From an uncultured Chlorobiaceae bacterium (GTDB lineage Bacteria; Bacteroidota; Chlorobiia; Chlorobiales; Chlorobiaceae), in contig CAIOLC010000102.1 of the NCBI GenBank assembly GCA_903859055.1, positions 2,170 to 66,169 of the forward strand: DNA of 64,000 bases. Reading direction: 5' to 3'. The translations under genes and the position numbers were made by a program. The notes under the pieces were generated by a model, which was given only the letters and a program-made list of their open reading frames with translations, did no database searches and was not told where the DNA came from. Every line of letters starts with the position of its first letter. Positions within the stretch are counted from its first letter, which is position 1. Positions 25,777 to 28,186 of this stretch are shown here, one piece after another.

Positions 25777-26142
25777 ATGAAAAGCTCTCTTGAAGTGAAC
25801 CCCGCTGCGGCCCTTGCCATGATTCAAAAGGGAGCATTGCTTGTTGATGTACGCGAATCGCGTGAAATTGCCGAAAAGTCATTTGATCTGCCGGATGTTA
25901 TCCAGATTCCTTTGGGTGAAATGAAAAGCCGGTATCGTGAAATACCTGAAAACCGTCAGGTAATTGTGGCCTGTCGCAGTGGTAGTCGCAGCATGATGGC
26001 AACCAGCTTTCTTGCGGGGAAGGGATACAGCAAAGCAATGAATATGCAGAACGGAATAATGGGATGGGAAAGGGAGGGGCTGCCACTCAAAACACAACCG
26101 AAACAAGCAGGAGGAGGATGGCTGCAACAGATATTTGGGTGA
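25777..26142 (+). CDS. Single-domain rhodanese (sulfurtransferase)
   Basis: LLVDVRE, active-site loop CRSGSRS, GIMGWEREGLP. Confidence 0.93.
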   Translation: MKSSLEVNPAAALAMIQKGALLVDVRESREIAEKSFDLPDVIQIPLGEMKSRYREIPENRQVIVACRSGSRSMMATSFLAGKGYSKAMNMQNGIMGWEREGLPLKTQPKQAGGGWLQQIFG

Positions 26143-26180: not shown

Positions 26181-26225
26181 ATGTGCAAAGCAACGCTTAA
26201 CGCTACTCCATGTTGCTTTGCACAT
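26181..26225. terminator. Hairpin between the convergent rhodanese gene and the sqr operon
   Basis: Perfect 14-bp inverted repeat ATGTGCAAAGCAAC / GTTGCTTTGCACAT, 17-nt loop. Confidence 0.7.
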
Positions 26226-26252: not shown

Positions 26253-26411
26253 TCAGGAGTGTCCGCCAACGACAACCCTCATAATCTTGACATTTAACAC
26301 AACAAATCGAACAAGCTGCCACAGCAGGTTTTTCCGCCAATAGAGTATCCCTTTTGATGGTACCGGCGGATAAGCTTCATCGTAATATGCTTTAACTTTA
26401 TTGGTGCCCAT
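26253..26411 (-). CDS. 52-aa small protein directly downstream of sqr (not in the ORF track)
   Basis: Hand translation MGTNKVKAYYDEAYPPVPSKGILYWRKNLLWQLVRFVVLNVKIMRVVVGGHS; starts 35 bp after the sqr stop and ends before the hairpin. Confidence 0.75.
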   Translation of the reverse strand: MGTNKVKAYYDEAYPPVPSKGILYWRKNLLWQLVRFVVLNVKIMRVVVGGHS

Positions 26412-26446
26412 AGTATTTCATGTTTGATGTTATCATTATACAACAG

Positions 26447-27901
26447 TTATTCAGGAATTAACCACCAGAATGGATAACCCTTTGCTTTATGGAAAAAGAG
26501 ATAGTGCAGGATTACTTTCAACCAGTGCCCTGCCAGACCAGCCTCTCCGAGAGAGTAGTTCATATCGCGACCCCATTCAGGATATTTGTCCCAGTCAGGA
26601 ACAACAGGAAAGAGGGTCATTGATGCGCCGAGTCCATCCAATGAACCAAAACCCGCTGATACAACACATGCGGCGCCCATTCTGCTCATTGAGGCTTTAT
26701 GGCGATGCTCTTTGGCCCCCTGAATTTGTTCAGCAATATTCAGTGCTACAATTTTACCCATAACACCTGCAGGCATACCAGTTCGCGGTGCTGTCGGAAA
26801 AATCTGACGGCCACTCGGGCTTGCCATGGGTTTGGAAATAGGATGCGGAGGGGCAAAGGCTATGCCAGGAGCATAGATATTTTTGTAGAGAGGATTCTGG
26901 TAAAGAGAGGGCCAGTCATCAGCCTCCCACTCCTCAAAAGGTTTTGCCTCATAATTTGCATCAACTTTCATAAACTTGTTTGGCGCAAACATCTTTTCGG
27001 TAATTTCGACTCCAATCTTGTCATAAGCCGTCAGACCAGCTCCTGAAAATGAGGGGATGAGCATGGCGAAGTCAAATTCCTGAATACACTCTTTACCATC
27101 CAGTGTTTCATAATATGCCTTGCCTGGTTCAACCCTGTGAACTCCGGCTCGTTTTATCCATTTGATACCATATTCGGCCATGAGGGATTCAGTGAAGACC
27201 TTCGTCGGAGTGTAATAGCCCCCCCTGTTAATAAAAGCACCTGCCATGCCAAAATCACCCAGCTCATACTCATTGGAGATCCAGGTGATCTGCGCCATAT
27301 TACTCAGACCCCGTTTTGAGATCTCCCAGGCCACATTCAGAATGTATTCAAAGGCTGCCCCCTGGCAGGTTGCCATTGCATGGCCCGTGCCGATCAAAAT
27401 GCGCTGCTTCTTGCCAGCCTGCATCTTTTTGATATTGTCCTGAAGATGTTCCCATGCGTGGGCCGCATGGTCGTATGTACAAACTGAAAAAGTGTTCTTG
27501 TCGGGACCGAGCCCCTCGGTTGCCTCAAAATTCAGCTTTGGACCGGTGGCATTGACCAGAAAATCATAGTCAACCTTTTCGCGTTCTCCCTTTCTCAACA
27601 GGTCGGTGTACTCAATGGTCACATACCCTTTCTTGATTTCACTATCCCCTTCCGGGTGTATTGCAACAGCTTTGGCCTGCTTCAGGATGATGCCCCAGCG
27701 GTTATAAACTTTTTTCAGTTCAAAGCGGACATCATCAATTTTCATCTGGCCAACACCAACCCAGATGTTTGACGGAGTCCACTGATAGTAACTGTTTGGG
27801 GTAACGACAACAACCTCATGCTGTTTGCCAAGTTTCTTTTTGAGAAAAGAGGCTGCGGTATGTCCTGAAACACCTGCTCCTAAAACTACAACTTTTGCCA
27901 T
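26447..27901 (-). CDS. sqr: Sulfide:quinone oxidoreductase, type IV (SqrD/SqrX-like)
   Basis: VVVLGAGVSG FAD motif; Cys in SVCTYDH, ATCQGAAFE and GAACVVSAG; PRTGM; C-terminal GHWLK...YPFWWLIPE. Confidence 0.93.
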   Translation of the reverse strand: MAKVVVLGAGVSGHTAASFLKKKLGKQHEVVVVTPNSYYQWTPSNIWVGVGQMKIDDVRFELKKVYNRWGIILKQAKAVAIHPEGDSEIKKGYVTIEYTDLLRKGEREKVDYDFLVNATGPKLNFEATEGLGPDKNTFSVCTYDHAAHAWEHLQDNIKKMQAGKKQRILIGTGHAMATCQGAAFEYILNVAWEISKRGLSNMAQITWISNEYELGDFGMAGAFINRGGYYTPTKVFTESLMAEYGIKWIKRAGVHRVEPGKAYYETLDGKECIQEFDFAMLIPSFSGAGLTAYDKIGVEITEKMFAPNKFMKVDANYEAKPFEEWEADDWPSLYQNPLYKNIYAPGIAFAPPHPISKPMASPSGRQIFPTAPRTGMPAGVMGKIVALNIAEQIQGAKEHRHKASMSRMGAACVVSAGFGSLDGLGASMTLFPVVPDWDKYPEWGRDMNYSLGEAGLAGHWLKVILHYLFFHKAKGYPFWWLIPE

Positions 27902-27982: not shown

Positions 27983-28186
27983 TTACTTGAACGCATGACC
28001 GGACTCGATGCCAACAGCCTTTAAAATTTTGGCCACAGGGCAAAAGCCGGTAAATGCTGCCTGAAAAAGGTTTGCACCTACAAAGCCGGTAAACCAGAGC
28101 CAGTTCGGGTTGTGATAGAGAGAGAGTAAAACGCTTGAAAGCACAAAACAGCCTGCAATTGCAAAGACGATACGATCGATATTCAT
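27983..28186 (-). CDS. DUF2892 (YgaP-like transmembrane domain) protein
   Basis: [12 protein letters not shown], two TM helices, [16 protein letters not shown]. Confidence 0.88.

Follow-up and report, generated by a model that had tools for sequence, protein, structure and literature searches.

A conserved microprotein gene downstream of sqr in green sulfur bacteria and its proposed association with SqrD/SqrX-type sulfide:quinone oxidoreductases

Introduction

Sulfide:quinone oxidoreductase (SQR) is the point at which the electrons of sulfide enter the quinone pool. It has this role in sulfur oxidation, whether phototrophic or chemotrophic, and also in sulfide detoxification. Both in enzymology and in metagenomic pathway calls, SQR is treated as a one-gene function. 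In the window analysed here (the whole stretch of 64,000 nucleotides from an uncultured Chlorobiaceae bacterium), a very short open reading frame follows a sqr gene on the same strand. A preliminary description of this DNA had proposed that the frame encodes an overlooked accessory or anchoring subunit of SQR. The locus raises the question of whether such a short frame is a gene at all and, if so, what its product does beside an enzyme which is thought to consist of a single protein. The analysis indicates that the SQR of the SqrD/SqrX class probably has a small partner that has remained unstudied.

Anatomy of the locus

The relevant features of the window are the following.

26253..26411, minus strand: gene of a 52-aa microprotein (the sORF), stop codon included, supported by ORF scan, conservation, dN/dS and family signature.
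26412..26446, minus strand: spacer of 35 nt between sqr and the sORF, unconserved in sequence.
26447..27901, minus strand: gene of a SqrD/SqrX-like SQR of 484 aa, the invariable upstream partner of the sORF.
26181..26225, no strand assigned: hairpin (14-bp stem, loop of 17 nt) that separates the sORF from the rhodanese gene converging on it.

The sORF begins with ATG and its translation is MGTNKVKAYYDEAYPPVPSKGILYWRKNLLWQLVRFVVLNVKIMRVVVGGHS. The preliminary description had placed it right after sqr, filling the gap between the sqr stop and a terminator, and this arrangement is borne out by the 35-nt distance on one side and by the hairpin, 27 nt past the sORF stop, on the other. The two arms of the hairpin (26181-26194 and 26212-26225) form a perfect 14-bp inverted repeat, and the minus-strand sequence just after it is CUUUCUCU. 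It is probably a shared terminator which closes the sqr-sORF transcription unit, a reading for which there are no RNA data. A single hairpin separates the rhodanese gene (25777-26142, plus strand) from the sORF, and it could act as a bidirectional terminator. A simple terminator scan did not pick it up, because its loop is longer than the 8 nt which the scan allows.

On the other side of sqr, 81 nt upstream of it, lies the gene of a 67-aa DUF2892/YgaP-like membrane protein (27983-28186, minus strand). The DUF2892 gene is found in 19 loci only, all from Chlorobiaceae; a YgaP-like gene also stands beside the pair on a GC-rich contig (L119).

Residues 1-19 of the peptide are polar and proline-rich and include the conserved AYYDEAYPPVPS, residues ~20-49 form a W/R-rich, basic amphipathic helix, and the C-terminal end is GGHS; the polar N-terminus, the PPVP motif and the helix are all present as first described. 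The net charge of the peptide is +6 and its hydrophobic moment is ~0.35-0.43, with R35, N40, K42 and R45 falling within the hydrophobic stretch. An open frame of this size is by itself not beyond chance, as the 6-kb stretch of the window from 23 to 29 kb is overlapped by 78 ORFs of 30 aa or more; the significance of the sORF comes from its conservation.

The neighbouring sulfide:quinone oxidoreductase

The 484-aa neighbour has a Pfam Pyr_redox_2 match, and its PDB sequence matches to the SQRs of Acidithiobacillus ferrooxidans and Aquifex aeolicus reach ~1e-35. Its structural model superimposes on 3KPK with a TM score of 0.86 and an rmsd of 2.7 Å, and on type I SQR structures, including 3T31, with TM scores of 0.85-0.86. 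C141 (svCt) and C179 (atCqg) align with the redox cysteines siCt and asCfg of 3SZ0/3KPK; together with C412, they are invariant in 81 homologues, down to 39% identity. The three cysteines correspond to C128, C160 and C356 of the A. ferrooxidans enzyme, the correspondence between C412 and C356 being inferred from position and not from the alignment. By predicted fold and by its cysteines, the neighbour is a sulfide:quinone oxidoreductase; that it carries out sulfide-dependent quinone reduction is an inference.

SqrD and SqrX are paralogous clades, of which SqrX is confined to green sulfur bacteria (PMC5776472) and has been labelled type IV (bioRxiv 10.64898/2026.09.24.754110). C. limicola and Chloroherpeton thalassium are reported to possess homologues of CT0117, the SqrD of C. 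tepidum (bioRxiv 10.1101/172254). The two SQR paralogues found in the Chlorobiales (see below) fit the description of SqrD and SqrX, and the name "type IV" agrees with the literature, no phylogeny against reference sequences having been used for this assignment.

Evidence that the sORF is a gene

In a search of 41 related genomes, the sORF frame is intact and has no internal stop in the 23 strong matches. The frame is intact in about 100 loci, and a scan with one genome per species confirmed at least 334 public loci with an intact frame. In close relatives, the product is always 52 aa long, except where, in a few cases, an alternative start has been called further upstream, and the start methionine and the C-terminal GGHS are conserved. 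The median dN/dS for 63 distinct loci is ~0.07 (Nei-Gojobori, pairs with usable dS), the mean pN is 0.13 against a mean pS of 0.74, and synonymous sites are saturated. The low dN/dS at saturated synonymous sites implies purifying selection at the level of the protein, and not the conservation of an RNA or of a terminator. The preliminary description had expected that, downstream of orthologous sqr genes, dN/dS would be below 1 and the frame kept, and a lack of frame conservation would have counted against it; as the frame is intact at every locus and dN/dS is low, that ground for refutation is absent.

The DNA around the sORF behaves otherwise. The spacer between sqr and the sORF ranges from 25 to 251 nt across loci, differs in sequence and contains stops, and, depending on the locus, the sORF stands in any of the three phases (0, 1 or 2) with respect to sqr. 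No Shine-Dalgarno sequence is evident before the sORF in this Chlorobium lineage. GC-rich genomes and some AT-rich ones carry a Shine-Dalgarno-like GGAG or AGGAG ahead of the ATG; in GC-rich phyla the start lies 4-20 nt past the sqr stop, and the GGAG often comes from the last sqr codons. In those phyla which use Shine-Dalgarno sequences, this short spacing behind GGAG points to a coupling between the translation of sqr and that of the sORF.

The extreme C-terminus of SQR (W479, P483 and E484, in ...WWLIPE before the stop; window positions 26447-26461 and the matching sites of loci L101-L119) is itself invariant among SQRs of this clade as distant as 39% identity. The last SQR codons (...IPE and stop, CCGGAGTGA) double as the Shine-Dalgarno sequence of the sORF in GC-rich genomes.

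Homologues of the peptide extend well beyond close relatives. When 1.84 billion representative proteins were searched with a profile, 176 clusters matched at E up to 1e-3. Among the best 150 of these 176 clusters, 147 are proteins of 24-110 aa (median 57 aa), and the family consists mostly of stand-alone proteins of ~40-90 aa. The other three matches, which are long (671-1388 aa), were discarded as repeat proteins whose scores sum up chance matches. A weak match in one of the related genomes (G040) was likewise rejected as a chance match, because it lies in an open frame of 476 aa (443 aa from the ATG) which encodes a TRAP-transporter (DctM-like) membrane protein.

These data bear on a sceptical reading, according to which the sORF is not an independent gene. 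It would then be open merely by chance across a conserved RNA or terminator element, or it would prolong the C-terminus of SQR through read-through or frameshifting. The shortness of the sORF, the many chance ORFs of similar size in the window and the lack of a visible Shine-Dalgarno sequence in the source genome would all suit such a reading. It is contradicted by the strong purifying selection at saturated synonymous sites, by the maintenance of the start methionine and of the 52-aa length behind a spacer which varies in length, contains stops and occurs in three phases, by the Shine-Dalgarno motifs found before the sORF in other phyla, and by the fact that nearly all of the 176 profile clusters are small stand-alone proteins. 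The sceptical reading is thus extremely improbable, and the conservation data in effect refute it, as far as sequence comparison can do so. The sORF is, on the same comparative grounds, a genuine protein-coding gene, for which direct evidence of translation is lacking.

An unnamed family of microproteins

The family has a core signature near the C-terminus, P-x7-R-x5-Q-x2-R-F-x3-N-x10-H, and this core motif is present in 140 of the 147 small representatives drawn from the best 150 of the 176 clusters. The window peptide meets the signature with P18, R26, Q32, R35, F36, N40 and H51. In a 40-sequence alignment of the family, Q32 is invariant and the other six positions are each at least 90% conserved.

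No Pfam or NCBIfam match to the window peptide was found at E up to 0.1, and no PDB sequence match at E up to 10. Ten divergent members gave no Pfam or NCBIfam match either, except for two noise-level Pfam hits (E of 0.36 and 0.56). The family members in GenBank are all titled "hypothetical protein" and have no family assignment; they include ACF14820.1 (Chloroherpeton thalassium), ABB22962.1/WP_011356838.1 (Pelodictyon luteolum), MEI6691843.1 (Chlorobium sp.), WP_131355654.1, WP_291983835.1 and Clim_2404/ACD91425.1. No paper describing the microprotein was found in the literature on SqrD, SqrX, CT0117 or downstream hypothetical proteins. The family is widespread and unnamed, with neither a paper nor a curated family found for it. 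The term "unannotated", which the preliminary description had used, holds in the sense that there is no family and no name other than "hypothetical protein"; it does not hold for gene calling, since public collections already contain gene calls for the identical protein and for relatives of it.

Full-length natural fusions between the peptide and SQR were found neither among the profile matches nor, among proteins of 301-959 aa, in a region-restricted search that took the read-through fusion as its query, and there is consequently no Rosetta-stone support for an interaction. Two public gene calls, P0022 (105 aa) and P0030 (110 aa), were considered and rejected as true fusions. Each joins a fragment of SQR to only the C-terminal 32-35 residues of the peptide, the fragment being the N-terminal ~78 aa of SQR in P0030 and an internal C-terminal piece in P0022; judging from their sequences, they are likely to be deletions or assembly chimeras and not full-length fusions.

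Peptides 92-94% identical to that of the window are also found on two contigs (L035 and L043) which are binned in MAGs named "Dehalococcoidia" and "delta proteobacterium". Both contigs almost certainly come from Chlorobium and were binned wrongly, and they are no evidence for the presence of the family in those phyla.

Linkage to one class of SQR

At loci where upstream DNA is available, every family member examined lies directly 3' of a SqrD/SqrX-like SQR gene, on the same strand. The pair occurs in Chlorobiales, Bacteroidales and Acidobacteriota. In all the Chlorobiales and Bacteroidales loci with upstream DNA, an SQR orthologue of 65-95% identity is found 25-251 nt upstream of the peptide gene. 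The preliminary description had mentioned, as unverified, that similar peptides follow sqr-like genes in other phyla. Such peptides, with the pattern W-Q-x-x-R-F-x3-N-x-K, do exist in Bacteroidales, in Acidobacteriota (Luteitalea) and on unassigned contigs. The divergent members which were sampled, from Luteitalea records and unassigned metagenome contigs of 33-72% GC, lie 4-70 nt behind an SQR orthologue of 50-57% identity.

The rest of the gene neighbourhood is not conserved. Besides sqr, the neighbours are unrelated in the divergent loci, and even within Chlorobiaceae they vary (DUF2892 in 19 loci, a methyltransferase in 15, DUF134 in 14, rhodanese in 5).

A second, more distant ORF of ~390-405 aa, resembling pyridine-nucleotide-disulfide oxidoreductases, is seen 1-3 kb from the sqr-sORF pair in several Chlorobium genomes (G007:C43:32430, G018:C8:42017, G009:C22:14795 and G019:C37:87172).

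Presence and absence of the two genes match exactly in both groups of genomes that were compared. Of 41 Chlorobiales genomes, the 21 which carry the 52-aa peptide are exactly those with an SQR at or above 74% identity. Similarly, the same 6 of 151 Acidobacteriota genomes have both genes (hypergeometric P ~7e-11); the two genes are adjacent in five of the six and split across contig ends in the remaining one. The distances between SQRs and those between peptides are correlated with r = 0.95 (72 pairs). It must be kept in mind that co-occurrence and co-divergence partly follow from adjacency alone.

The association extends to a paralogue of the enzyme. An SQR of 39-40% identity is present as five copies in five Chlorobium genomes (G001, G005, G012, G013 and G014), and each of the five has its own 38-aa sORF, MRPTSFDKFLMRCRIYQFWRFIVLNIKILKAVHHDKTA, with the same core. 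In these genomes, the 38-aa sORF is followed by a stem-loop and a T-run, that is, a terminator; the C. limicola version of it is Clim_2404. Both sqr-sORF pairs are present in one genome, G012. Seven more distant SQR/FccB-like paralogues of the Chlorobiales (24-28% identity) have no such peptide nearby, according to an HMM which scores positive controls at 6e-35 and 4e-18.

Orphan intact copies of the peptide gene were not seen in the loci and genomes examined. One genome, G019, contains a second copy of the island (L133, G019:C37:84600-88000, minus strand) in which the DUF2892 gene is intact and sqr is deleted. In this decayed copy, the first ~20 codons of the sORF are deleted as well, and the remnant, located ~100-320 nt downstream of the DUF2892 gene, is truncated and frameshifted: it reads ...YWRKKQLWQIVRFVVLNY up to a stop and then, out of frame, IIKIMRIVVGGHS up to another stop. 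The intact sqr-sORF pair is retained on contig C18 of the same genome. This decay suggests that the peptide does not persist without its SQR. As judged from gene order and co-occurrence, the sORF is an obligate genomic partner of one class of SQR, while its biochemical role remains an inference.

Predicted structure and possible role

The AlphaFold2 input was the read-through fusion encoded at a natural locus of a related Chlorobium, where the sORF is in frame with sqr and only the SQR stop comes before it. With an alignment of 132 rows, the model has a pLDDT of 84.5 and a pTM of 0.85. In it, SQR ends in one long helix (456-473), and the peptide forms a helix of 30 residues (fusion residues 516-545) with a moderate pLDDT of 69-79; the conserved N-terminal part of the peptide is predicted with low confidence. 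With a shallow alignment of 31 fused rows, the pLDDT is 63.9, and the C-terminal third is mostly below 50, with a peak near 52. The Foldseek alignments cover ~480-495 columns and do not inform on the peptide helix.

On a helical wheel, R26, Q32, F36, N40 and H51 share one face, and K27, R35, K42 and R45 the other. The conservation of polar residues on one face of the putative helix suggests a specific protein interface, and the basic face is inferred to suit anionic lipid head groups. A transmembrane helix like that of CydX was considered and discarded, given that the best 18-residue Kyte-Doolittle mean is 1.6, that R35, N40, K42 and R45 are conserved and that the hydrophobic moment is 0.35-0.43. 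The helix is thus unlikely to cross the membrane and is predicted to lie more likely at its surface.

The interpretation that we favour, with moderate confidence, takes the peptide for a small additional subunit of SQR, located where the enzyme faces the membrane. The idea that it binds and anchors the enzyme is inferred from the genomic linkage, from the pattern of conservation along the helix and from analogy, in the absence of binding data. The peptide would fold as one long basic amphipathic helix, roughly from residue 20 to residue 49, which would bind SQR on its membrane-facing side. The stripe formed by R26, Q32, F36, N40 and H51 would contact the enzyme, and the basic stripe formed by K27, R35, K42 and R45 would contact lipid head groups. 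In this way the peptide helix may complement the one amphipathic helix which the prediction places at the C-terminus of this type of SQR, and may help membrane anchoring, the shaping of the quinone site, or both.

Several observations count against a subunit. There is no direct evidence for translation or for binding, and the AlphaFold2 output does not give the position of the peptide relative to SQR. The confidence of the peptide helix is only moderate in the deeper run, and mostly very low in the shallow one. A charge of +6 would also suit a role at the cytoplasmic face or in nucleic acid binding. The purified SQRs described in the literature are called single-subunit enzymes; to our knowledge, these are mostly of other types.

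The peptide might instead act only transiently, as an assembly or targeting factor which helps SQR to arrive at or insert into the membrane or its periplasmic face, or assists the uptake of FAD by this signal-less flavoprotein, and then dissociates. The strict linkage, the co-occurrence and the decay after the loss of sqr fit this possibility equally well, the family is never fused to SQR, and the disordered, conserved N-terminal segment could be a separate docking element. It is nevertheless rather unlikely, since coupled translation would yield both proteins in roughly equal numbers, as is more usual for subunits, since there is no Tat-like twin arginine, and since the hydrophobic stretch is broken by conserved R, N and K residues. 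A Tat signal peptide as such was examined and rejected: only R26 is conserved, position 27 being K, R, T or S, and the helix which follows contains conserved charges.

Another possibility is that the peptide is functionally linked to SQR and physically separate from it, either as a modulator of the enzyme or as a factor of the membrane surface which handles the polysulfide product or arranges lipids or quinone around the enzyme. Indeed, a basic amphipathic helix could bind anionic membranes alone, and linkage by itself is no proof of contact. However, the polar stripe R26, Q32, N40 and H51 on one face is typical of a specific contact with a protein rather than of general binding to lipids, each paralogous SQR keeps its own co-diverged peptide, and no orphan intact copies have been seen. 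We regard such a separate function as unlikely, and retain a second subunit as the working interpretation.

A stronger statement, that the SqrD/SqrX-type SQRs are obligate two-subunit enzymes in which the microprotein is part of the membrane anchor and of the quinone-binding site, is conceivable and can only be put forward tentatively, the balance of the evidence being not yet in its favour.

Significance

Many green sulfur bacteria rely mainly on SqrD/SqrX-type SQRs for the oxidation of sulfide, and enzymes of this type also occur in Bacteroidales and in soil Acidobacteriota. If the two-subunit reading is true, the rule according to which SQR is a single-subunit monotopic enzyme fails for this whole class, and the heterologous and kinetic studies made without the peptide have used an incomplete enzyme. 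The microprotein could then explain differences between SQR types in membrane binding, quinone specificity and kinetics. It also provides a simple genomic marker for SqrD/SqrX-type SQRs.

Comparison with known systems

By sequence, the peptide belongs to none of the systems to which it may be compared, namely the helices of type I SQRs, YjlC, the CydX-type subunits and FccA. The closest parallel within the same enzyme fold is offered by the C-terminal helices of the type I SQRs (3HYV from Aquifex aeolicus, 3T31 and 3KPK from A. ferrooxidans), which are likewise basic, aromatic-rich and amphipathic. Lying at the membrane interface, these helices hold the monotopic enzyme in place and form part of the wall of its quinone channel. 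They belong to the enzyme chain, whereas the window peptide is the product of a separate gene, with no demonstrated sequence homology to them. The window-type SQR has one long predicted C-terminal helix (456-473), and the peptide is inferred to supply a second one.

In Bacillus subtilis, the small protein YjlC (DUF1641) likewise shares an operon with its enzyme, the type II NADH dehydrogenase YjlD/Ndh (NDH-2), a monotopic flavoprotein that reduces quinone and falls into the same structural superfamily as SQR. Chain 9a63_B, from the integrative model of YjlC and NDH-2 (9A63), is among the fold matches of the SQR model. YjlC has ~140 aa and is encoded upstream of the gene of its enzyme; it belongs to Pfam DUF1641, which the window peptide does not match, and its partner is NDH-2 and not SQR.

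The flavocytochrome c sulfide dehydrogenase FccAB (1FCD, 3VRD) is another case in which a flavoprotein homologous to SQR works with a second, co-encoded subunit, the cytochrome FccA, and FccB-type structures are among the fold matches of the SQR model. FccA is a haem protein which accepts electrons, whereas the window peptide has no cofactor motif and its SQR is expected to reduce quinone.

CydX and CydS are single-helix subunits of cytochrome bd oxidase, of 30-50 aa, which are encoded at the 3' end of the operon and long remained unannotated. CydX is a true transmembrane helix, whereas the window peptide, which is unrelated in sequence and accompanies another enzyme, is likely to be interfacial. 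Beside them, the product of the sORF adds one more overlooked microprotein linked to a respiratory enzyme.
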